Source: Myxococcota bacterium
GTDB taxonomy: Bacteria; Myxococcota; UBA4151
Assembly: GCA_036338695.1 (NCBI GenBank)
Contig: JAYZBQ010000009.1
Location: 32,001 to 96,000 of the forward strand
DNA length: 64,000 nt
Reading direction: 5' to 3'
In this document: positions 37,149 to 51,539 of the stretch, piece by piece
Layout of the letters: each line of letters starts with the position of its first letter
Numbering within the stretch: position 1 is the first letter of the stretch
Made by a program: the position numbers and the translations under genes
Notes under the pieces: generated by a model
The model's database searches: none
What the model was told of the DNA's origin: nothing
What the model saw: only the letters and a program-made list of their open reading frames with translations

Positions 37149-38296
37149 TCCGCATCGCCCTACTCGGCTCCACCGGCTCGATCGGGACCCAATGTCTCGA
37201 CCTCGTCGAGCGGTTCCCAGAGCAGCTCGCCGTCGTTGGCTTGGGCGGCGGACGGCAGCTCGAGCTGCTCGCGCAACAAGCCAAACGCTTTCGACCGCGT
37301 CTGGTCACCTGTCAGGACGAGGGAGACGTGGCGAGGCTAACCGCTTTGATCGATGATCCGACCATCGCCATCGAGGCCGGCGCCGCAGGGCAAAGAGCGC
37401 TCGCAACGCTCGACGAGGCGGACACCGTGGTGGCGGCGGTCGTCGGCTACGCCGGGCTGGTCGGGACCCTCGCAGCCGCAGAGGCGGGCAAGCGCATCGC
37501 CCTGGCCAACAAGGAGAGCCTCGTCGCAGGCGGCGAGCTCGTCATGAAGACCCTTGCGCAAAACGGCGGTGAGATCATCCCGATCGACTCCGAGCACGTC
37601 GCCATCCATCAGTGCCTGAGTGGCGAGCAGCACGCCTCCATCCACCAGCTCTGGCTCACCGCAAGCGGAGGCCCTTTTCGAGGCGCCGATCGCAACGCGC
37701 TGGCTCACATCAGCGTCGATGAAGCGCTCGACCACCCGAACTGGTCGATGGGTCCCAAAATCACCATCGACTCGGCGACGCTCATGAACAAGGGGCTCGA
37801 GCTGGTCGAGGCGACGTGGTTGTTTGACTGCCCACCGGATCAGGTGCAGATCGCCGTCCATCCCCCCAGCCTCGTTCACTCGATGGTCGAGTTTGTTGAC
37901 GGCACCTTCAAGGCGCAGCTCGGCGCGCCCGATATGCGCTCGGCGATCGCCTACGCGCTCTCGCCATCGCCTCGTCTGCCGCTGCGCGCAGTCGACGGCG
38001 TCCGGCTCTGGAACCCGCTCGATCAGGCGCTTGAATTCGAACGTTATGATCGATCGGTCTTTCGAGCGCCCGACCTATGCCGAGCGGCGCTTCGCCAGGG
38101 CGGGGGGACGCCGGCGGCGCTCAACGCGCTCAACGAGGTGCTCGTGGCTCAGTTCCTGGGCGGTCGGCGAAGCTTTTTGAGCATCGTCGATGACTTGGAG
38201 CGCGGTTTGGAGGCGTTGTCGCAGCAGGCTCTGGCGGGCGACTCGCTCGAGGCGATCGTCGCCGCGGACGCAGCAGGGCGCGCGTGGGCGGGCTAG
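37145..38296 (+). CDS. dxr: 1-deoxy-D-xylulose 5-phosphate reductoisomerase
   Basis: LGSTGSIG, ANKESLV, PIDSEH, HPNWSMGPKITIDSATLMNKGLE; ATGA overlap with cdsA at 37145. Confidence 0.97.
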   Translation: MIRIALLGSTGSIGTQCLDLVERFPEQLAVVGLGGGRQLELLAQQAKRFRPRLVTCQDEGDVARLTALIDDPTIAIEAGAAGQRALATLDEADTVVAAVVGYAGLVGTLAAAEAGKRIALANKESLVAGGELVMKTLAQNGGEIIPIDSEHVAIHQCLSGEQHASIHQLWLTASGGPFRGADRNALAHISVDEALDHPNWSMGPKITIDSATLMNKGLELVEATWLFDCPPDQVQIAVHPPSLVHSMVEFVDGTFKAQLGAPDMRSAIAYALSPSPRLPLRAVDGVRLWNPLDQALEFERYDRSVFRAPDLCRAALRQGGGTPAALNALNEVLVAQFLGGRRSFLSIVDDLERGLEALSQQALAGDSLEAIVAADAAGRAWAG

Positions 38297-39828
38297 AACG
38301 CTCGGCGTGGTGGAGGGCGGCGGCGCTCTTTGGGCTCTTCTTGGTCCCGCGCATAGCGCTGCTCGGAGACGCTCGCTGGACCGGTGAAGAGAGCTGGTTC
38401 TTCTGGGAGATCTATCAAACAGCGCAGGGCGAGCGTTGGTCTGCCTTGGGCACCCCCGTCTCCGGCACACGGGGCGCGCATCCCGGCCCCTACTTCTATT
38501 TTCTCCTCGCGCCCTTTGCCTGGAGTGGCTCGCCTTGGCTGACGAGCCTTGGCGTCGCGCTGCTCGATAGCCTGGGGCATCTGCTGGCGCTCATGGGGCT
38601 CGCTACGCTGCTGATCGGTCGACCGCATCGGCGGGTGGCGCTGACCGTGGCGGCGCTGATCTTGGCACTGAGCCCGTGGGCGCTTCTGTACGCAGACCGC
38701 CCCTGGAACTCGAACCTCGTGAGCCTTCCCGTCGGGCTGGCGTTGCTCGGCTTTGCTCGGTGGCTCGAGGCGCCGCAGCGCTGGCGCGCCTTTGCTCTGC
38801 TCACCATCGGGTTGGCGACCTTACCGAGTTTCCATATGTCGGCGCCGATCATCGGACTGCCCATGCTGATGATGGTGGCTTGGCGCTGGCGAACGCTCAG
38901 ACCAGCCAGCGTGATCACTGGAGCGGCGCTCTCCGTTATCATCTGGAGCCCTTATGCGCTCCACGAACTCAAGCACTCAGGGGCCAACACGCGTGGGCTA
39001 ATGACCCGTAGCCTCCCGGCGGTCAGTGACACCGAGAACACCGTTCTGGCGCTGAGCTGGCCGTGGCGCTTGGTCGCGCCGGAGATCGGTTACCACGCGC
39101 AGAAAGGGTACTGGTCACCGTATCAGCCGAGCGGATGGCGGCAGCCTGGTTCCTCGGCGCAGCGGTCGTGGCGAGCGATTCATGGTGACCTCGTGGCGCC
39201 AGGTGTCGCGCTCGGCGGCTTACTCATGCTGACGCTGTGGGTTGCTTATCTGGTCAGCCTGAAGAAGCGAGATCAGCGCGACCAACTCAGCGCGCTGTGG
39301 TTGAGCGGCACGCTGATCGGCTGGGGGCTGCTGCTGATCGCGGGGCGGCGCGCCTACCCGCATTACCTGCAGCCGCTCCTTCCCTACTACGCAGCCGTCG
39401 TCGGGCTCGGTTTTGCTCAGCTCTGGGACCGCCCCAAACTGCGCAGCGCCCTCGGGCTGGCGCTCGCGATCAGTTTAGGCACCGGACTCGTCGTCACCGA
39501 GCGCTTTCAGCGACTCAACGATCGGCCCTTTGGTTTAAACGCCAATCTCTACACGGCTGATCTGATGCAGCGCTTCGGATCGATCAAACCCGTCTTTTGC
39601 GGCGCCCTTGGGTACCGAAATGAACGACAACTCAGTCAGCTGATGCGCGTCACCCATCCAGACGCTGAAGGCGGCTCATCGCGCGGCTACCTCGTCCATC
39701 TACTCGAGGGCGAGGCTTCCGCAGAGGCGAAGCGATTGGCCCAGTGGTCGAGCACACGATACGGAATTCAGCACTTTTTAGTGCTCGGCGCTTTACCACA
39801 GCCGCTGCGGAGACTAGGGTGCCGGTAG
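38284..39828 (+). CDS. Polytopic membrane protein, ArnT/PMT-like (GT-C) glycosyltransferase family
   Basis: Multiple TM segments; WTGEE in the first loop, HPGPYFYFLLAP, SPW...YADRPWN and YPHYLQP resemble GT-C enzymes. Confidence 0.6.
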   Translation: MGGLERSAWWRAAALFGLFLVPRIALLGDARWTGEESWFFWEIYQTAQGERWSALGTPVSGTRGAHPGPYFYFLLAPFAWSGSPWLTSLGVALLDSLGHLLALMGLATLLIGRPHRRVALTVAALILALSPWALLYADRPWNSNLVSLPVGLALLGFARWLEAPQRWRAFALLTIGLATLPSFHMSAPIIGLPMLMMVAWRWRTLRPASVITGAALSVIIWSPYALHELKHSGANTRGLMTRSLPAVSDTENTVLALSWPWRLVAPEIGYHAQKGYWSPYQPSGWRQPGSSAQRSWRAIHGDLVAPGVALGGLLMLTLWVAYLVSLKKRDQRDQLSALWLSGTLIGWGLLLIAGRRAYPHYLQPLLPYYAAVVGLGFAQLWDRPKLRSALGLALAISLGTGLVVTERFQRLNDRPFGLNANLYTADLMQRFGSIKPVFCGALGYRNERQLSQLMRVTHPDAEGGSSRGYLVHLLEGEASAEAKRLAQWSSTRYGIQHFLVLGALPQPLRRLGCR

Positions 39829-39830
39829 TC

Positions 39831-39848
39831 TGAATGAGGATTCATTCA
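39831..39848. promoter_or_regulatory. Palindromic operator TGAATGA-GGAT-TCATTCA (FadR/YsiA-box-like)
   Basis: Perfect 7-bp inverted repeat ending 3 nt before the TetR ATG. It differs at one position from the Bacillus FadR box as I recall it (TGAATGANTANTCATTCA). Confidence 0.75.
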
Positions 39849-39851
39849 ATT

Positions 39852-40520
39852 ATGAGCCGCAGCCCCGACAAGCGTCATCTGATCATCACCGCCGCGCAAA
39901 AAGTCTTCTCACAAGTGGGCTTTGACCGAGCTCGAATCTCGGACATTGCTCGCCGGGCGGGCGTCGCTGACGGAACCATCTACCTTTATTTTAAAAGCAA
40001 AGATGAGCTGCTCATCAGCCTGTTTGAAGAGCGCGTCGCTCCGGCGATGCAGGCGATCGAGGCGAAAGTCCAAGAGGGTCATCAAGATCCGCGAGAGCGC
40101 TTTGCGCAGCTGATCAGAGCCTACCTCGGGGCGATGCAGAGCGACCCCTCGCTGGGCTCCATCATCACCATGCAGGTTCGCCAGAGCCGGCGCTTTGTCA
40201 CCGACTACGACAACCGCCCATTGGCCAAGTTCTTCTCGGTGCTGCGCGCCATCCTCGACGACGGAATAAAGCAAGGGCTGTTTCGTCGTGACGTATCGAT
40301 CGATGCGCTTCGCTGGATGGTCTTTGGCAGCCTCGACGCGTTCACGTTGGCGTGGGGGCTTGGGCGCAACAGCGCCACCGACCTCAACGACCTCGGGGAC
40401 CACCTCGTCCGGCTCACCCTCCGAGGGCTCAGCTCGGGCGACAACCCAACCTTGATGCCGCAGCCGGCGCCGACGATTCAGCAAGACACCACCGACACCT
40501 TTGACCCAGCATTGGACTAA
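39852..40520 (+). CDS. TetR-family regulator, FadR(YsiA)-like
   Basis: ISDIARRAGVADGTIYLYFKSKDELLISLFEE HTH; sits at the head of the beta-oxidation/ETF genes. Confidence 0.9.
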   Translation: MSRSPDKRHLIITAAQKVFSQVGFDRARISDIARRAGVADGTIYLYFKSKDELLISLFEERVAPAMQAIEAKVQEGHQDPRERFAQLIRAYLGAMQSDPSLGSIITMQVRQSRRFVTDYDNRPLAKFFSVLRAILDDGIKQGLFRRDVSIDALRWMVFGSLDAFTLAWGLGRNSATDLNDLGDHLVRLTLRGLSSGDNPTLMPQPAPTIQQDTTDTFDPALD

Positions 40521-40522
40521 GC

Positions 40523-41662
40523 ATGATCTCATTTGGATTGACCGAAGACCAACTCGAATACCAGCGCATGGCGCGCCAATTCATCGCGCAGACGGTGATC
40601 CCCCATGCAGGGCACTGGGATGAGACCGGACATTTCCCGAAAGACGCCATCCGCAGCGCCTGGGAGAACGGTCTGCTCAACCTGTGCATCCCAAGCTCGG
40701 TCGGGGGCGCAGGCATGCCGCTGGTGGACACGCTGATCATCAGCGAGGAGATCTCCTACGGCTGCGTCGGGTACTCGACCTCGTGCATGGCGAATGAGCT
40801 GGCGCTCACCCCGATCGTTCTCGGCGCCGACGAAGATCAGAAGCGTAAGTTCCTCAAGCCATTCGTCGACGAGTTCAAGCTTGCGGCGTTTTGCCTGAGT
40901 GAGCCGGGCGCAGGATCGGACGCAGCGTCCTTGCGGACCACGGCTCGTCGTGAGGGCGATGAGTGGGTCATCAACGGTCAAAAACAGTGGATCACGAACG
41001 CAACCCACGCGGACTTTTACACGGTCTTTGCGACCGTGGATCGAGAGGCGGGCCACCGCGGCATTACCCTCTTTGCCGTACCTCGTGACACGCCTGGCAT
41101 CACGGTCGCTCCCCATGAAAATAAGATGGGGCAACGCTGCTCGGACACGGCGCCGATCAGCTTTGAGGACGTGCGGGTGCCGGCGGATCACTGCATCGGC
41201 GGTCCGGGGAATGGCTGGAAGATCGCCATGCACACGCTCGACTTTAGCCGCCCGCTCGTCGCCATGTCGGCGGTGGGTGTCGCCCGGCGCGCGCTTGAGG
41301 AGTCGATCAACTACGCCAAAGAGCGCAAGACATTCGGCAAACCCATCGGGCAGCATCAGGCGATCGGTTTCATGCTCTCGGACATGGCAGCCAAGACGCA
41401 GGCTGCTCGGCTGCTGGCGCTCGAGGCAGCTTGGCGGACCGACCAAGGCTTGCCCGCCAACAAAGAGGCGAGCTTCGCCAAGGCGATGTGCGCCGACTGG
41501 TGCATGGAGATCTGCACCGACGCCGTGCAGATCTTCGGCGGCTACGGCTACACCAAAGAGTACCCAGTCGAGAAGCTGATGCGAGACGCTAAGCTCATCC
41601 AGATCTACGAAGGAACCAGCCAAATTCAGCGTATTGTGATCTCGCGAGAGCTCATGCGCTAA
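40523..41662 (+). CDS. Acyl-CoA dehydrogenase
   Basis: FCLSEPGAGSD, NGQKQWITN, KMGQR, QIFGGYGY, IYEGTSQIQR (catalytic Glu). Confidence 0.96.
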   Translation: MISFGLTEDQLEYQRMARQFIAQTVIPHAGHWDETGHFPKDAIRSAWENGLLNLCIPSSVGGAGMPLVDTLIISEEISYGCVGYSTSCMANELALTPIVLGADEDQKRKFLKPFVDEFKLAAFCLSEPGAGSDAASLRTTARREGDEWVINGQKQWITNATHADFYTVFATVDREAGHRGITLFAVPRDTPGITVAPHENKMGQRCSDTAPISFEDVRVPADHCIGGPGNGWKIAMHTLDFSRPLVAMSAVGVARRALEESINYAKERKTFGKPIGQHQAIGFMLSDMAAKTQAARLLALEAAWRTDQGLPANKEASFAKAMCADWCMEICTDAVQIFGGYGYTKEYPVEKLMRDAKLIQIYEGTSQIQRIVISRELMR

Positions 41663-41725: not shown

Positions 41726-42475
41726 ATGAAGATACTCGTACCGATCGCACGCACCGAAGATTACAACGCGCGCATCGTCGTCAATAAAGCAGGCGATGAC
41801 ATCGAACGCGGCGGCGTGGCGATGGTGATCAACCCCTTTGATGAGATCGCCGTCGAGGAGGCGCTGCGGCTCTTGGATGGTGGCGAAGGTGAGATCATCG
41901 TCGTCGCCATCGGTGGCGACGAGGCTGCGCCTGAGCTGCGTCGAGCGCTTGCGATGGGCGCGCATCGGGCGATCCAGATCAACACCGAGGTCAAGCTGAT
42001 GCCCGAGGTCGTGACGCCGCTGCTCGCAGCGGTCGCTGAACGCGAGCAGCCCGACCTGGTCTTGATGGGCAAGCAGAGCATCGACGGCGACTCCGGACAG
42101 GTCGCGCAACGGCTGGCGCATCGCCTCGACTGGCCGCAGGCGACCTTCGCCTATGAAGTGAGCGTTGAGGGCGGCACCGTAACCGTCGGCTGCGAGGTCG
42201 ACGGGGGCACCGAAACCGTCGCCTTCGACCTACCCGGCGTGATCAGCACGGACCTGCGCCTAAACGAGCCCAGGCTGCCGAAGCTCCCCGATATCATGAA
42301 GGCGAAAAAGAAACCCTACGAGGTCTTGACCGACGCGGAGCTTGGCGGCGTCGAGGAGAGCCCAATTAAAGTGCTCTCGCTGTCCCCGCCGCCCGAGCGT
42401 CAAGCCGGCCAAATCGTCGCCGATGTCGATACGTTGATCGCAAAGCTGCGCGACGAAGCCAAGGTGCTCGCTTAA
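41726..42475 (+). CDS. etfB: Electron transfer flavoprotein beta subunit
   Basis: INPFDEIAVEEALRL, ALAMGA, GKQSIDGD, DLRLNEPR. Confidence 0.96.
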   Translation: MKILVPIARTEDYNARIVVNKAGDDIERGGVAMVINPFDEIAVEEALRLLDGGEGEIIVVAIGGDEAAPELRRALAMGAHRAIQINTEVKLMPEVVTPLLAAVAEREQPDLVLMGKQSIDGDSGQVAQRLAHRLDWPQATFAYEVSVEGGTVTVGCEVDGGTETVAFDLPGVISTDLRLNEPRLPKLPDIMKAKKKPYEVLTDAELGGVEESPIKVLSLSPPPERQAGQIVADVDTLIAKLRDEAKVLA

Positions 42476-42515
42476 ATCAAACGATAGACACCGCGATGCG
42501 GTGGAATGGTGAATC

Positions 42516-43913
42516 ATGAAGACTGGATTATTGATTGCCTTGGGTGTTGCCGTCGCCGTGGCGCTCGGATGGATGGGGACTCGAAAAAAGGAAGAACCTC
42601 AGCCGGCGCCTGAGCCAAAGCCCGAGCCCAAGCCGGAGCCCGTCGCTGAGCCCGCGCCGCAAGCCGCAGCGCCCAGCGAGAAACCAACCCTGGTGATGTC
42701 GCCCGAAGAGGCGCAACAGGCGGCCACTGAGTCGATGGCGTCCACCGAGCCGACGGTGACCCCAGAAGAGCCCACGCAAGAACCTGCGGCGGCAGAAGAG
42801 GCACCAGCGGAGCTAGAAGCGGCGACCGAGGGCGCGCTCGCCGATGACTCAGGCGATGAGGTCGAGCTTGAGAGCACCGCGGACGAAGATCCGAGCGAAG
42901 CTGAGACCGTGCTGGCTCCTGTCGAGGTACCGGCGGCGACTGAGAACCCCGCAGGCGGCAACGCGGTCGTGTGCCTCCTCGACGTCGCCGGCGGCGACCT
43001 CTCGGTGCCTAACCGAGCGACCCTAAGCGCCGCACAGCAAGTCGCCAGCGCACGTGGCGCCGACTTGCACGTCGTCTGCATGGGGGCGGACACCTCCAGC
43101 GCAGCGAACGCTTCGGCAGAGGGGGTCACCGCCGTCCACGCCATTACCCACGATCAACTCGGAGACGGCGTCGCTGAGACGTACTACGCTGCGGCGATGC
43201 AAGCGCTCGCTCAGGTGGCAGCGGACGTGGTGATCGCCCCATCGAGCAGCGTCGGCAAAGGGTACCTGCCCCGCCTCGCCGAACAGCTCGGCTGCGGCAT
43301 GGTGACCGAGATTTTATCGGTCGAGTCCGGCGATACCTTCACGCGCGCCCTGTGGGCAGGAAGCGTCATCGCCACGGTCCAAGGCACCGGCCGACTGGTC
43401 GTCTCCGTGCGCGCCACCGGGTTTGAGCCCGCCGCCACGCAGGCTGCTGATGTTCAAGCGATCGCCTTTGAGCCCCCGCAGACCAAGACACGCTTTGTCG
43501 GCCGAGAGAAGACGGAGAGCGCCCGCCCGGATCTGAGCGAGGCGTCGGTTGTGGTCTCAGGCGGACGTGGCACCAAAGGCGACTTCGCCCCGATCGAGCA
43601 GCTTGCAGACGCCCTAGGGGCTGCGATGGGCGCCTCGCGCGCAGCGTGCGACGCAGGCTGGGTACCGAATGATCTCCAGGTCGGTCAGACCGGTAAGGTC
43701 GTGGCGCCGAGCCTCTACATCGCTGCGGGTCTATCCGGCGCGATCCAGCACATCGCAGGGATGAAGGGCTCGAAAACCATCGTTGCGATCAACAAGGACG
43801 AGGAGGCGCCGATCTTTGGCGTCGCCGACTATGGGCTCGTCGCCGACCTGTTTGAGGTTTGTCCAGAACTTGCCGATAAGGTCAGTGAACAAGGACTAAA
43901 ACCCACCGCCTAA
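42516..43913 (+). CDS. etfA: Electron transfer flavoprotein alpha subunit with N-terminal TM anchor and acidic Pro/Glu/Ala-rich linker
   Basis: C-terminal ~317 aa: [46 protein letters not shown]. The first ~148 aa are a hydrophobic helix, RKK and a low-complexity linker. Confidence 0.93.
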
Positions 43914-43943: not shown

Positions 43944-45986
43944 ATGCACGGGATCGCCGTCGTCTCGGTTTTAGGGGTCTCGCTGGCGCTTTTCGCCCGG
44001 AATTGCCTGCGCCTCGTGCGGATGATCCGGCTCGGCGTCGACGACTTCACGCTCTCGCACCTCGGAGGTCGCCTCAAGGATGTCGCCTACTACGTCATCG
44101 GTCAGGCGAAGCTGCTGCGTGACCCGGGCGCGGGCATCCTGCATATGGCGTTCTTTTATGGGTTCCTGCTGATCCAGATCGGGCTGGTGGAGTTCGTCCT
44201 CTCGGGCGTCCTCTTTGACGAACAAGGCAACGGCTTTAGCTACGCGTGGCTCTTTGGGACCCCTGCTGAATCCCTCATCATGAAGGGCTATTGGATCAGC
44301 CAAGAGCTGGCGATCTACGGCGTCGGCTTGGCCTGCTTCATCGCCATCTTCCGGCGCTGGTTCTTGCGCGCCTTCTTGCCGAGGCTCAAGAAACGCTCGG
44401 CCGACGCTGAGCTGATCATTTTGTTTATTGCGATCCTCATGGTGACGCTTGCGGGCGTGCAAGCCGCAGATGTGGTCATGGGACACGGTGTCTTCGCCGA
44501 CGCGCAAGGTGATTGGCTCTACGGACGGCCAGGGACTCGGCTGTTCGCTGCGGCCCTGACCACCGAGTCGGCCAAGGGGCTCTACCCCTTCTTCTGGTGG
44601 GGTCACTTCCTGACCATCATGATCTTCATGAATTACCTGCCGTTCTCGAAGCACATGCACCTGCTCGGAGCGGTCCCAAACTTCTTCCTGCGCCCGCGCG
44701 GCGAAGGGCTTATCCTGAACCCGGTCGACTTTGAGTCGAGCGAGGAGTTCGGTGTGGGCCGGGTCAACCTCTTTGGCGCCTCCGACCTGCTCGACACCTT
44801 CGCCTGCGCAGAGTGCAACCGCTGCACCGTGGTCTGCCCGGCGAACACGACCGGCAAGCCGCTCGATCCAGCCAAAATCGTGCACGACATGAAGGACAAC
44901 CTCTACGCCAATGAGGTGAACCTACTCGATTGGGTCAACAAAGGGAGCGAGGGCGAGCCCAACTGCGAGGTGAACCTCATCGGTGGGGCCGACAGCGAGG
45001 GCTCGATCCATTTTGACGAGCTCTGGAGCTGCACGACCTGTGGCGCCTGCGTCCAAGAGTGCCCAGTCGGGATCCGCCATGTGCCCAAGATCGTCGACAT
45101 GCGCCGTCATATGGTGATGATGGAGGGCAACAATCCACCGGAGCTCGACTCGGTCTTTCGTGGGATGGAGACCAACGCCAACCCGTGGGGTCTGGGCGCG
45201 AACACCCGGTTTGACTGGGCTGACGGCTTGGAGATCCCGACCGTCGAGACCAACCCGGACTTCGAGTACCTGTATTACGTGGGCTGTGCTGGGAGCTTTG
45301 ACGATCGAGCCAAGAAGATCACGGCGGCGATGGTCAAGCTGCTGCGGCTTGCGAACGTCAACTTCGCCGTGCTCGGCAAAGGCGAGAGTTGCAACGGCGA
45401 AACGGCCCGGCGACTCGGCAACGAATACCTCTTCGTCGAGATGGCGGGTACGCTGATCGACACCTTCAAGCGCTACGACGTGCAGAAGGTCATCACGACC
45501 TGTCCCCACTGCCTCAATACGTTCAACAAGGACTATCCGACCGTCGACGCCGAGTTTCAGCTTGAGGTTCACCACCACACGGACTTCCTCAACGGCTTGG
45601 TCCGCTCCGGAGCGATTGCGCTCGATGCGAGCGACGCCGGGAAGGTCACCTATCACGACTCGTGCTATCTGGCGCGCTACAACGGGATCGAAGACAGCCC
45701 GCGCGACCTGCTCGAGGCCGCTGGGGCCGATCTGGTCGAGATGACGCGCAACCGCGACCGGGGTTTCTGCTGCGGCGCTGGGGGCGGTCGCATGTGGATG
45801 GAGGAGCACCTCGGGACGCGGGTCAACCACAATCGAACCCAAGAGGCGGTTGAGACCGGCGCCACGACGGTGGCGGTCGCCTGCCCATTTTGCATGACCA
45901 TGATCGGTGACGGCACCCGAGAGATCGGGGTCGATGACCAAGTCGTGGTCAAGGATATCGCCGAGGTTCTCGCCGAACGCGTCTAA
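43944..45986 (+). CDS. Membrane-bound FeS/CCG-domain oxidoreductase (FadF/EtfD/EMO-like ETF:quinone oxidoreductase)
   Basis: NarI-like TM domain with His (ILHM, WGHF, SKHMH); two 4Fe-4S motifs [12 protein letters not shown] and [15 protein letters not shown] domains (TCPHC, HDSCY, FCCGAGG, ACPFC). Confidence 0.9.
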
Positions 45987-46067: not shown

Positions 46068-46472
46068 ATGGCGAATCTACAAGATAAGCGGAACAAGATG
46101 CGAAAACGCTTTGCGCGTGTCCGCGTTGATTTGCGTCTTGAGGTCGAGACCGAGACCGGAAGCCTGCACACCCGAGCGCGCAACCTGAGCGCCAAAGGGG
46201 TCATGTTCAACTCCGAGGGTGAGCTGGTCCCAGGGCAGCAGATTCACGTGCTGATCTACATCCCGCGCGGTCGAGAGGTGGACCTTCTCAAGATCAAAGG
46301 TGAGGTCATCTGGGTCCGCCGAGAAGAGGATCGCAGCTTCATCGTCGGGAGCACGTTCACGCGCTTTGCTCCAGGTGATGAGCGGCGCCTGCGGCAGTAT
46401 CTCCTGCAGCACCTGCGCGGTGAAGACCCGCACCGAGCGCCTTATTTCGGGCGCGAAGGCAAGTTCGACTAA
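46068..46472 (+). CDS. PilZ-domain protein
   Basis: RKRFAR (RxxxR) and NLSAKG (D/NxSxxG) c-di-GMP-binding motifs; GEVIWVR. Confidence 0.85.
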   Translation: MANLQDKRNKMRKRFARVRVDLRLEVETETGSLHTRARNLSAKGVMFNSEGELVPGQQIHVLIYIPRGREVDLLKIKGEVIWVRREEDRSFIVGSTFTRFAPGDERRLRQYLLQHLRGEDPHRAPYFGREGKFD

Positions 46473-47360: not shown

Positions 47361-50300
47361 ATGATGCGGTGGATCACCGTTTTTTGCTGCCTGATCAGCG
47401 CGACCGTTTGGGCACAAGAACAAGAGCCGAACAACGACCGAGCGTCGGCGAACGCAATCGCTCACGGCGACGTCATCCGAGGCTCGATCACGCGCGGCGA
47501 CGAAGACTACTTTACCATCACGCTGGGCGGTACGGCGACCATCGATGTCTGGACCGCAGCGGCGCAGGGTGGTCAGAACATGGACACCTACATCGAGATG
47601 TACCAAGAGGGGCAAGAAGCTCGAGTAGCGTTCAACGATGACCGGGGGGGGCGCGCTCAAGGGCTCTACAGCGGTCTGAACCGCCCTGACACACCGGCTG
47701 GAACCTACTACTTTAAAGTGCGCGGCTTCAGCGCCTTCTCGACCGGTGACTATCAGATTCATCTCGAGTTAAGCGGCGGCCCTGACCTGAGCGTCTCAAA
47801 CTTTGCGCTCAACCCCCAGCCTGCTCCAAACCAGCCGTGGGCAGCCTCAGTACAGGTCAACAACGGCGTCGATGCAGCGATCGCCACGGTGGCGCGCCTT
47901 TACAACGGCGACGCCGTCATCGGCGAGCAGCCCGTCGCGGCGCTCGCCGCCAACGCCAACGCCCAGGTCGCCTTTGCGAACCTCGCAGCCCTGCCGATCG
48001 GTTATCACGACCTGCGCGTCTGCGCAGACGCCACGGGCTTGATCCAAGAACTCGACGAAGAGAACAACTGCGCCACGCTGCGCGCCACCGTCGGCTTGGA
48101 CGTCGTGGTTCAGAACCTAAGCCTCACCCCGAACAACCCGGACGTGGGTCAAGGGTGGGCAGCGCAAGCGACGATACGCAACGCGCTCGCCGGCGCGCTG
48201 CCTGCGGCGCAAGCCCAGCTGCTGCTCAACGATGTACCCGCAGGTACCTGCGAAGTCCCGGAGATCGCCAACGGTGGTGAACACGTGTGTCAGTTCAACG
48301 AGCTCGCCGGCCTCCCCTCGGGCATCACGGTGGTCAAGATCTGCGGCGACACCGGCGCAGCGATCGAGGAGGCGTCCGAAGAGAACAACTGCGCCGAGCG
48401 ACGTATTGCGATCGGTTCTGATCTGATCACAGAGAACCTGAACATCAACCCCGTCAACCCGGGGCTCAACGAGACCTTCAGCGCCAGCGTCCGTATTCGG
48501 AACCGCTTTGCGCCGGAGACGCCCGCCACGGTCGCTCGTCTCTTCGTCGGTGATCAAAGCTGGGGCGAGTGCGAGGTCCCTGCGCTAGCTGCAGAGGCAC
48601 ACCACGACTGCTCGCTCGAGAACCTAAATCCGCCGCCCGCTGGGCGACTCACGGTGCGTTTTTGCGCCGACGCCGAGGAGCAATGGGGCGAGCGAAACGA
48701 GGACAACAACTGCGCGGAGTCGAACTTCTTCAACGGGCCGGACCTGCAGATTCAGCAGGTTGTGCTCAACCCCAACCCCCCGGTTGAGGGGCGAGATGCC
48801 CAGGCGCTCATCGTGGTCCGCAACGCGGTCGCTGACCCCACCGACAACGCCACGACGGTGCGGATCACGGAGAACGGTCAGCCGGTCGGTCAGCCCTGCG
48901 CGATCGCCCCGGTCGGCGGCAACGGGATCGGCGCCTGTCAGATCAACGAGCTGCGCTTTGAGGGTGGGGACCACACCCTGCGCATCTGCGCCGACGCCGA
49001 CAACGAGCAGGTCGAGATCAACGAGGAGAACAACTGCACCGAGCTTCAGTTCAGCGTCGAGGATGTCGATGATTACGAGCCCGACAACACGCGCCTTGAG
49101 GCGACGTTGATCCGTGACAACGCCCCGCAAGACCATACCCTGCACAACGCCGAGGACATCGACTACCTGTTCTTCGTGGTCAACCGCCCGAGCGAGGCGC
49201 AGATCACGACCGGCCCCAGCCAAGAGGGCGACGCCTTCAACACGCGCGTTGCCCTGCTCGACGCCGAGGGGCGTGAGCTGACGAGCAACAACAACGGCGG
49301 CGAGGGCAACTGGTCTCGCCTCATCCGCGAGCTTCAACCGGCGACCTATTACATCCGGGTCAACCGCGGAGGAAATGACGCCGTCGATCGCTACCGGATC
49401 AACCTCCGGCTCATCGACCTCGCGGCGCGCCCACCCGACCTGAGCCTTGGCGTCGTGAGCGTGGCGCCGAACAACCTCTTCGCCGAGCAACCCTTTACGG
49501 TCTCAACCACCGTCAGCAATGCGGGGAACGCCGGCGTGAGCCAGGCGACAATCGCACGCCTGACGATTAACGGCGACAACGCCGGTGAGTGCCAGCTCGC
49601 AGAGATTGCGACCGGGGGCAGCGCGCCGTGCTCGATCAACGTGGCTCAGGGCGTCGCCGCAGGTGACGTCGTCCTGCGCGTCTGCGTCGACCCTGCGAAC
49701 GCCATGGAAGAGCGGGACGAGACCAACAATTGCGGTCAGCTCAGCCTGCACCTCTTCGCCATCGACGAATTTGAGCCGGACAATGCGCGTGACGACGCCA
49801 GCGACCTACCCCTCGATGAGGCGCAGAGCCACACACTGCACGTCGCCGACGACACCGACTGGGTGCGTGTGACCATGAGCGAGCCGGGCACGCTCACCGT
49901 ATCCGGCGTGCTGATCGAGGGCTCGGGTGGCGACATCGACGGCCGACTGACCGCGCCGGGCGGCGAGACGCTGGCGCGGGCGACCGGACAAGGTCCCGTC
50001 GAGTTGAGCTACGGACCCGCTGATCGCGGCGTCTTCTTTGTCGAGATCACGGGACGTGGCGGCGCGGCGGTCGATGGCTACACGCTCACCGCAACGCACC
50101 AGGGGATGAACGGGGACGTCGTCCGCGACATCCGGCTCAGGAACGTGACGGTCGATCCAGAGGCGCCCGCACCAAACACCGCGTTTGCGGTGGACATTGA
50201 CAGCGTCAATGACGGCAACCTGATCTCATCTCCCACTCCTGTCGCCTTGTCCGTCGGCGGCGAGGAGATCACGCGCTGCGTGCTGCCTCCGGCGGATCCA

Positions 50301-51539
50301 GGTGACCGCACCCGGTGCCGCGACGTCGAGATGCCGGGCCTCGAAGAGGGCACTTATGAGCTCGAAGCCTGCATCGATCCGGACCAAGAACTCGGCGAAT
50401 CCGAAGAGGCGCAAGCGAACAATTGCGCAACCATCGAGCTCGTTGTCGGCGAGCCAACGCCGCCGCAGAACGATCTTCGCCTCCAGAACCCATCGCTCAA
50501 CCCCGCCGCGCCCATCGCCGGCGAGATGATCACGCTGCGGATGGAGGTATTTTACCAAGGAGACGACTCGACGCCGCCCACGACAGTGGACATTAAAGTC
50601 AACGATGAGAGCGTCTTTACCTGTCAGATCCCGGCGCTCGACGGCCGCATGACGCGCACGGCGCGCTGCCGCACCTTGCCCGGGGTCCTGCAGATGGGTG
50701 ACGAGCCCCAGGTGATGCAGGCTTGCGTCGATCCGACCAACCAGATCGAAGAGACGGACGAGACCAACAACTGCATCCGGCTGCTGATGGCGCCCGGTGG
50801 GCTGATCGGCGACGACCCAGACCCCTACGAGGAAGACAACACCTGGCAGACGGCAGGGTCGCTGCGAGACACCTCGGACGCAAACCGAGCACAAGAGCAC
50901 AACCTGCACACCAGCGATGACGTCGACGTGATGAAGTTTACGCTGCAGCAGGACGATGCGATCAACGTTCGGCTCCAAGACGTCCTCGGCTCGGTCACGG
51001 TTCACCTGATCGACGGACCGGCCGCTGTCGGGGACGCAGGTGCCCGCATGGAGCTTGAGCTCGATTTCGACGACGAAGGGCTCGCGAGCACCGGTGAACT
51101 CTCGGCGGGGACCTATGGCTTGATAGTGCGCAGCGCCGATGGCTTCGCCGTCGGGCGCTACCGGATCAACGCATGGAGCGAACTCGGTCCACCCATCCCG
51201 GATGCCGGCCCTTTACCGCCGGACGCGGGACCTCCCGGCGAATGTGTTAGCAACGACGACTGCACCGGCGGTCAACGCTGTGTGACGGACGATCCCGAGC
51301 CATACTGCACCGACCCTTGCGAGACGGTTGTCGATTGTCCAGTTGGATTCCAGCTGACCTGTCGAGAGATCAGCGCAGGCACCAAGGCTTGCATCCGCGG
51401 CGAGGCGCCGCCGACCGTGGGTCCTGAGCCACCGGCGCAAAGCTGCGCCTGCAGCGGCGACATCGGGAGCGCTGGAACGCTCGGTTTCCTTGGGTTGCTG
51501 GCGCTGGCTTACAAGCGCCGGAGGCGACACGCCAGCTAA
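47361..51539 (+). CDS. Cell-surface protein with 4 PPC-like and 7 CARDB domains and a MYXO-CTERM-like sorting signal
   Basis: Signal peptide; EPNN/EPDN/EEDN-initiated domains; CARDB ends C.D....I.E..E.NNC; C-terminus SCACS...LGFLGLLALAYKRRRR. Confidence 0.85.
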   Translation: MMRWITVFCCLISATVWAQEQEPNNDRASANAIAHGDVIRGSITRGDEDYFTITLGGTATIDVWTAAAQGGQNMDTYIEMYQEGQEARVAFNDDRGGRAQGLYSGLNRPDTPAGTYYFKVRGFSAFSTGDYQIHLELSGGPDLSVSNFALNPQPAPNQPWAASVQVNNGVDAAIATVARLYNGDAVIGEQPVAALAANANAQVAFANLAALPIGYHDLRVCADATGLIQELDEENNCATLRATVGLDVVVQNLSLTPNNPDVGQGWAAQATIRNALAGALPAAQAQLLLNDVPAGTCEVPEIANGGEHVCQFNELAGLPSGITVVKICGDTGAAIEEASEENNCAERRIAIGSDLITENLNINPVNPGLNETFSASVRIRNRFAPETPATVARLFVGDQSWGECEVPALAAEAHHDCSLENLNPPPAGRLTVRFCADAEEQWGERNEDNNCAESNFFNGPDLQIQQVVLNPNPPVEGRDAQALIVVRNAVADPTDNATTVRITENGQPVGQPCAIAPVGGNGIGACQINELRFEGGDHTLRICADADNEQVEINEENNCTELQFSVEDVDDYEPDNTRLEATLIRDNAPQDHTLHNAEDIDYLFFVVNRPSEAQITTGPSQEGDAFNTRVALLDAEGRELTSNNNGGEGNWSRLIRELQPATYYIRVNRGGNDAVDRYRINLRLIDLAARPPDLSLGVVSVAPNNLFAEQPFTVSTTVSNAGNAGVSQATIARLTINGDNAGECQLAEIATGGSAPCSINVAQGVAAGDVVLRVCVDPANAMEERDETNNCGQLSLHLFAIDEFEPDNARDDASDLPLDEAQSHTLHVADDTDWVRVTMSEPGTLTVSGVLIEGSGGDIDGRLTAPGGETLARATGQGPVELSYGPADRGVFFVEITGRGGAAVDGYTLTATHQGMNGDVVRDIRLRNVTVDPEAPAPNTAFAVDIDSVNDGNLISSPTPVALSVGGEEITRCVLPPADPGDRTRCRDVEMPGLEEGTYELEACIDPDQELGESEEAQANNCATIELVVGEPTPPQNDLRLQNPSLNPAAPIAGEMITLRMEVFYQGDDSTPPTTVDIKVNDESVFTCQIPALDGRMTRTARCRTLPGVLQMGDEPQVMQACVDPTNQIEETDETNNCIRLLMAPGGLIGDDPDPYEEDNTWQTAGSLRDTSDANRAQEHNLHTSDDVDVMKFTLQQDDAINVRLQDVLGSVTVHLIDGPAAVGDAGARMELELDFDDEGLASTGELSAGTYGLIVRSADGFAVGRYRINAWSELGPPIPDAGPLPPDAGPPGECVSNDDCTGGQRCVTDDPEPYCTDPCETVVDCPVGFQLTCREISAGTKACIRGEAPPTVGPEPPAQSCACSGDIGSAGTLGFLGLLALAYKRRRRHAS

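Follow-up and report, generated by a model that had tools for sequence, protein, structure and literature searches.

In textbooks, electron transfer flavoprotein (ETF) is a soluble protein that carries electrons from acyl-CoA dehydrogenases to the quinone pool. The ETFs described in the available sections of PMC3582634 and PMC5109826 are soluble or unanchored, and studied ETFs were purified from the soluble fraction or are abundant there. The alpha subunit (EtfA) encoded in the 64,000-nucleotide stretch of Myxococcota DNA analysed here (the window) begins with a helix of hydrophobic residues followed by an extended acidic arm, which raises the question of whether this ETF is held at the membrane and what such a leash would do. 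The helix is best read as a predicted uncleaved N-out/C-in anchor by which the only ETF of the cell would be leashed to the inner membrane on its cytoplasmic side; a probability of about 0.65 is attached to this reading. The features of the locus are as follows.

39834..40520, + strand: TetR-family regulator; best match a FadR-type fatty-acid regulator (NF053878, 150 bits, below the cut-off of 200)
40523..41662, + strand: soluble acyl-CoA dehydrogenase, likely one electron donor; 67-96% identical in relatives
41726..42475, + strand: EtfB, ordinary 249 aa, single copy, without signal or membrane helix
42489..42503, strand not assigned: perfect hairpin of 6 bp between etfB and etfA, directly ahead of the region where etfA starts
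42516..43913, + strand: EtfA with predicted anchor, 465 aa, the sole EtfA found in the genome
42522..42581, + strand: residues 3-22, an uncharged helix predicted to be a membrane anchor, uncleaved and N-out/C-in
42582..42590, + strand: RKK basic patch, residues 23-25, predicted cytoplasmic flank; K/R directly after the helix in 13/13 leaders
42591..42956, + strand: acidic arm of E/A/P/T type with predicted disorder; both its sequence and its length vary
42675..42764, + strand: conserved 30-residue motif within the arm (residues 54-83), with a short strand-like stretch and a helix at 63-75
42957..43910, + strand: intact EtfA domains, residues 148-465 (1EFV_A, E 1e-65)
43944..45986, + strand: membrane ETF:menaquinone oxidoreductase of EtfD/EMO type with heme b and Fe-S clusters (680 aa), likely acceptor

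Translation of 42516-43913 gives 465 residues without an internal stop, and an in-frame TGA two codons upstream of the ATG makes a longer start impossible. Residues 3-22 contain no charged residue (maximum Kyte-Doolittle 17-mer 2.31). They are followed by RKKEE and then by an arm of 124 residues with a net charge of -26, 68% of which is E, A, P or T. An initial annotation, made from the DNA alone, had described this succession of hydrophobic helix, RKK patch and E/A/P/T-rich stretch, as well as an intact EtfA domain starting late in the reading frame, and both descriptions hold: the Pfam matches ETF (159-314) and ETF_alpha (339-417) are over cut-off and fall within residues 148-465. The TonB-like run of 11 letters that it also listed is missing in five of the 11 aligned homologues (P0009, P0010, P0011, P0015, and P0016). 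A TonB-like periplasmic spacer is rejected, as the repeat is not conserved and the charge pattern is opposite to that of an N-in/C-out protein.

The best solved-structure matches of EtfA are human 1EFV and Paracoccus 1EFP, both non-bifurcating ETFs, and by alignment the FAD domain is strongly conserved relative to 1EFV. In the ESM Atlas, the whole protein matches ETF/FixB clusters only, at 0.87, while residues 1-148 return no usable match. The genome (93.6% complete) has a single ETF_alpha match. A canonical soluble EtfA has about 310-330 aa and no membrane segment; this one, with 465 aa and helix 3-22, falls outside that description. The AlphaFold2 model was built on a 16-row alignment, has low confidence in the FAD domain, and is used for the leader only. 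It predicts a helix at 3-21, pLDDT values below 50 at 22-60 and 78-138, in line with a disordered arm, a short helix at 63-75, and a first domain strand at 150-156.

Across 11 genus-level rows, mean pairwise identity is 45% for the helix, 62% for motif 54-83, and 80% for the EtfA domain, with 28% and 36% in the flanks of the motif. No segment reaches a pN/pS of 1 in the pairs tested: the ratio is 0.23-0.62 for the helix, 0.25-0.63 for the arm, and, for the motif, 0.05 against G003, 0.12 against G001, and 0.63 against G002. These values are weakened by nearly saturated silent sites (pS 0.4-1.0). The arm measures 89-124 residues in 12 of the 13 helix-type leaders, P0015 being left out. On the basis of the segment identities and pN/pS ratios, hydrophobicity, basic flank, acidity, and length are retained while the leader sequence drifts.

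In a rival reading centred on the conserved motif, the arm is mainly a regulatory or docking module. Residues 54-83 would bind a partner, be it the oxidoreductase, one of the dehydrogenases, or, once Thr is phosphorylated, an FHA protein, and the anchor would serve control or a specific subcellular site rather than bulk concentration. Conservation far above the flanks, the predicted helix, and the doubling of the motif in P0012 speak for such a module, as do 17 FHA-domain and 22 kinase-domain matches in the genome. T58-x-x-M resembles the consensus of an FHA site, a phospho-Thr at T58 being a resemblance only. Repeats in the tail of mycobacterial EtfD are likewise predicted to bind ETF (PMC13083937, available text). 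However, the motif is missing in the second genus (P0015, P0016, and P0241) and in the amphipathic group described below, and it is degenerate in P0011, whereas anchor and arm persist. It is also confined to etfA within the genome, where the next matches to its profile reach only E 0.0013 among predicted genes and 0.03 in six frames. A mainly regulatory arm is therefore unlikely, though it retains some weight.

The preferred reading, a membrane anchor, depends on the topology of the helix. Positive charge marks the cytoplasmic side of a membrane segment (the positive-inside rule). K/R follows the uncharged run immediately in all 13 leaders, and none precedes it in 11 of the 13; the query and P0008 have one Lys each. 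Given this rule, the helix is predicted to be an N-out/C-in anchor, a call based on our own simple counts of charge and hydropathy. C-in is also the only sensible orientation, because EtfB has no signal and the donors and the clusters of the acceptor are cytoplasmic.

A filter for helix, basic patch, and acidic arm passes 4 of 2725 predicted proteins: EtfA, FtsY, and two with a lipoprotein-like Cys. The FtsY gene (G000:C57:7547-8929, - strand) is built alike, and in 21 of 25 Myxococcota ftsY loci (L259-L283) the protein starts with a transmembrane helix followed by a basic patch and an acidic arm. FtsY, a cytoplasmic GTPase attached to the membrane through its A domain, likewise combines a membrane helix, a flexible acidic region, and a folded cytoplasmic domain, although in proteobacteria its membrane-targeting helix is amphipathic and not transmembrane as in those 21 loci (PMC4602035, sections available). 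The two proteins are unrelated, as are their functions. Their leaders share no significant likeness (E 0.04), and the idea of an anchor borrowed from ftsY was rejected. Together, the charge pattern and the like-built FtsY point to an uncleaved N-out/C-in anchor, and the topology and flexible arm first proposed for this single gene are supported by a family-wide pattern and a signal-less EtfB.

A rather improbable alternative is that the leader is removed by signal peptidase or by regulated proteolysis of the arm, such that the working ETF is soluble or is released on demand. The query does start with MK and a hydrophobic stretch, resembling a Sec signal, and long disordered arms are generally protease-sensitive. 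However, most leaders lack the N-terminal positive charge, and all carry a basic residue right after the helix. The pattern of a signal peptide, whose cleavage the annotation had itself named as fatal to its proposal, was sought and not found: there is no Cys in the 13 leaders, and among 14 rows AxA occurs near the helix end in one and a twin-Arg motif in none. The hallmarks of Sec (n-region and AxA), lipoprotein (lipobox Cys), and Tat (twin-arginine) signals are absent. Export would moreover part EtfA from its signal-less EtfB, its cytoplasmic donors, and its acceptor.

The gene order tetR–acyl-CoA dehydrogenase–etfB–etfA–oxidoreductase is kept in the family wherever contigs permit, and the tetR gene occupies the equal position in G001, G003, and G005. 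Directly after the oxidoreductase lies a stand-alone PilZ-domain gene (134 aa, window 46068-46472). Its identity is 92-99% among members of the genus and 80% to the other genus, exceeding the conservation of its neighbours. Also in the window, 47361-51539 encodes a 1392-aa secreted CARDB/PPC-repeat protein that is syntenic across the family and ends in a membrane helix and basic tail resembling a sorting signal. A family-conserved 514-aa multi-pass membrane protein (38284-39828) lies between dxr and tetR; it has no Pfam match over cut-off and presumably resembles a lipid-sugar transferase.

The protein encoded downstream of etfA matches Mycobacterium smegmatis EtfD (9OJN) with an E value of 1.6e-117. 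It has the heme b His pair H67/H239, two cubane motifs, and a pair of CCG domains that carry the ligands of D1 and D2; C448, C483, C520, C523, H522, C574, C609, C610, C647, and C650 map on the EtfD ligands, a set taken from the available part of PMC13083937. By these matches, the gene is assigned as an EtfD/EMO-type ETF:menaquinone oxidoreductase with all cofactor ligands, in agreement with the FadF/EtfD-like acceptor of the initial annotation. Only 30-31 residues follow the last Cys motif in 6/6 family genomes, and thus the mycobacterial C-terminal disordered tail is absent. It was considered whether the ETF anchor compensates for a tail-less EMO, but many relatives with ordinary EtfA are also short-tailed (29 of 30 loci readable), and the idea was rejected. 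EMO matches occur in 34 of 35 genomes of other families, and EtfA is ordinary in those examined; the leash is therefore not needed for the pathway.

In the query genome, menD and COX1, a heme-copper oxidase subunit, are present, and neither ETF-QO nor the futalosine route was found. The acyl-CoA dehydrogenase family gives 17 matches in 16 ORFs on eight contigs, none with a membrane helix, and the single ETF must therefore serve many soluble donors. Contig C13 (550-36217) of this genome holds seven genes of the family and C78 (10568-12688) a pair, mostly as adjacent pairs, which we take to be reminiscent of heterotetrameric steroid side-chain dehydrogenases. Such a dispersed, helix-less set of donors does not support the beta-oxidation metabolon that had been suggested for the locus. 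A ternary EMO:ETF:dehydrogenase complex was not seen in Syntrophus either, where ETF docks transiently via EtfB (bioRxiv 10.64898/2026.08.18.745454, in the text available).

It is hypothesized that EtfA would insert as a single-pass protein, with soluble EtfB binding it in the cytoplasm. Soluble acyl-CoA dehydrogenases would diffuse to the membrane and reduce the FAD of ETF, after which EtfAB, on its arm, could swing across to the oxidoreductase and reach the distal Fe-S clusters there. The oxidoreductase would hand the electrons to menaquinone and then to the heme-copper oxidase. Such an ETF would be a swinging shuttle and not a fixed complex, alternating between dehydrogenases and oxidoreductase within a 10-20-nm shell under the membrane. 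From a scaling law, the reach of the arm is estimated at ~6-8 nm on average and 30-45 nm when fully stretched; for assumed cell radii of 0.25-0.6 µm, the gain in concentration is estimated at roughly 5-20-fold. This local concentration would be the benefit, making up for the weak and transient contact that ETF and EMO show in the species studied. The mycobacterial ETF-EtfD contact is described as possibly weak, and AlphaFold3 places it in the disordered tail of EtfD (PMC13083937, available sections).

The architecture first described for one gene recurs among its relatives. Among the 120 homologues listed, helix and arm occur in 11 clusters (90% level, own included), as well as in four further partial or frameshifted entries, and the helix-group EtfAs form one branch of the tree (support 100/100). 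Close relatives with only ordinary EtfA, which would have spoken against the leash, were not found: EtfA is extended in 6/6 family genomes searched, from two genera. The helix is visible in five of these, and the sixth (G004) ends at a contig edge inside the arm, its etfA cut within an EEPAA repeat. The gene is unbroken in G000, G002, G003, and G005; that of G001 is broken within an AAAEPE repeat, with the helix directly after etfB. Second-genus members are labelled Myxococcales or Myxococcota MAGs and the metagenomes carrying the DNA are mostly marine, so the host family is one of uncultured marine Myxococcota.

Beyond the family, 23 of 24 loci show the 5′ end, and those EtfAs begin at the domain. 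Hydropathy of the first 45 residues never exceeds 1.56 in the 106 ordinary-length homologues, and the helix of the query is thus more than chance. Adjacent etfB-etfA loci number 204 including duplicates, of which 191 span at most 1039 nt; the 13 longer spans comprise nine of the helix family, three intergenic gaps (L085, L093, and L220), and one of the amphipathic group. L032, which appears to duplicate an already counted genome, was left out of the recount. Among 122 proteins of at least 380 aa, only P0177, which is eukaryote-like and probably mis-started, passes the helix cut outside the family; the family members P0006 and P0008 lie just below it (1.93 and 1.95). None of 145 additional representatives is helix-anchored, and the 29 that are extended are mostly transit-peptide-like. 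The best 150 of a profile search at 50% clustering hold two helix-type and one amphipathic-type representative, a depth below which distant independent anchored EtfAs would rank.

The amphipathic group consists of five clusters of EtfA-domain proteins longer than 403 aa (P0130, P0156, P0165, P0171, and P0180). Their first nine residues or so form a stretch rich in aromatics and Lys, which is followed by three glycines and an acidic arm of 73-86 residues. Their nearest full-length relatives are ordinary EtfAs of 323-327 aa, some labelled Myxococcales. In a 42-row tree, the group nests among ordinary EtfAs, several starred branches from the helix group, and a single clade of both is rejected (p-AU 0.0076) in a quick tree whose groups were named from their leaders beforehand and whose long helix branch (0.79) can bias the test. 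The backbone of an earlier EtfA tree was unresolved. On the basis of the separate branch and the rejected clade, anchoring appears to have arisen twice, the second lineage having gained a different anchor independently.

The hydrophobic moments of the amphipathic starts are 0.38-0.49, compared with a mean of 0.21 and a maximum of 0.41 for 218 ordinary EtfA starts. We take these starts to be like the membrane-targeting helices of MinD and FtsY, and from this likeness and the modest moment we infer that they may bind the membrane. The 3.4-kb contig L148 carries tetR-etfB-etfA (etfA at 1366-2601), shows an SD-like tract upstream of the start codon of the long form, and ends without an EMO gene. 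P0237, a member of an amphipathic cluster on a 67-kb contig, is annotated at ordinary length. No genome of the group was found among the 401 phylum genomes searched (best identity 57%).

Neutral accretion, in which a single gene fusion added a membrane leader that was tolerated and became fixed although it brought no benefit, would account for the narrow distribution seen in the profile search, for the drift and simple repeats of the arm, and for a pathway that runs elsewhere without a leash. In contrast, proteins that are only 47-80% identical retain the helix, the basic flank, and an arm never shorter than 89 residues, a second and different anchor of separate origin bears an arm of similar make-up, and no donor gene was found, FtsY included. 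An origin without benefit is therefore improbable, slightly more so than removal of the leader.

The fusion of a membrane-type helix and arm to EtfA is real. Four DNA runs were compared with the locus. Among the best DNA matches, which may include the source sample, contig X2 covers 42011-43618 and X8 covers 42523-43142 with no insertions, deletions, or joints. Four leader variants are found among those listed, two silent and two jointly E94Q (codons assigned by eye). A codon model trained on the genome ranks the EtfA frame best in 4/4 leader segments, by a narrow margin in 1-22 and 23-53. A chimeric junction or hidden stop, against which the initial annotation had warned, was sought and not found, and its view that the domain boundary lacks a convincing SD plus start codon stands. 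That a misassembly or an internal start near 42960 yields an ordinary EtfA is scarcely credible: a GTG is present at residue 152 and the database entries P0240, P0237, and P0231, from both groups, are called from internal starts, but contigs span the junction, and two contigs as long as 3.73 and 3.71 Mb encode 465-aa proteins of the query's cluster. Moreover, GTG132 and GTG152 have by eye no SD-like tract ahead of them, the internal GTGs are not conserved among homologues, translation from 152 would cut into the first strand, the homologue L007 has no start codon anywhere before the domain and L003 none at the boundary, and the leader amino acids are conserved.

Short-read assemblies tend to end within the tandem repeats of the arm (end of L112 and start of L113; end of L117), and gene callers often choose internal starts for these proteins (P0240 and P0237). 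Anchored EtfAs are therefore probably under-counted in databases.

Several known systems resemble the leashed ETF in part. Canonical soluble ETFs (human 1EFV, Paracoccus 1EFP, and the ordinary ~316-aa Myxococcota EtfA) share both EtfA domains, the adjacent etfB, and the use of many donors and one acceptor; the difference is a leader of 147 residues comprising membrane helix and acidic arm. [quoted passage not shown] There, AlphaFold3 predicts that ETF and EtfD are linked by a disordered region bearing conserved repeats. However, it is the acceptor that carries this tail (778-1042), with which it would capture free ETF, whereas in the query genome arm and anchor are on ETF. The Syntrophus EMO:EtfAB and Syntrophomonas DUF224/EtfAB systems share the gene order etfB-etfA-emo, and ETF docks transiently on the cytoplasmic domain via EtfB (available parts of bioRxiv 10.64898/2026.08.18.745454 and PMC3582634). 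There, soluble ETF serves anaerobic reverse electron flow, in contrast to the heme-copper oxidase and anchored EtfA of the query genome.

No paper on a membrane-anchored EtfA was found in the open literature, which was the scope of the search apart from a few subscription papers. Anchored EtfA is a new form of the ETF-EtfD/EMO system that probably evolved twice. A broader proposal can be put forward only tentatively: marine Myxococcota may twice, with a transmembrane and an amphipathic anchor, have made ETF a membrane-leashed swinging-arm carrier that mirrors the mycobacterial EtfD tail, the arm motif of the query genus possibly docking the leash on a partner or placing it under kinase/FHA control.

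The pathway and its chemistry are already known, and the lineage is narrow and uncultured. If anchored ETF was gained twice, delivery of ETF to its acceptor can limit enough for selection to act. The leash offers a clean test of how a weak ETF-EtfD/EMO contact becomes efficient and bears on the unexplained tail of mycobacterial EtfD, and an anchored ETF may permit the co-purification of ETF:EMO complexes.
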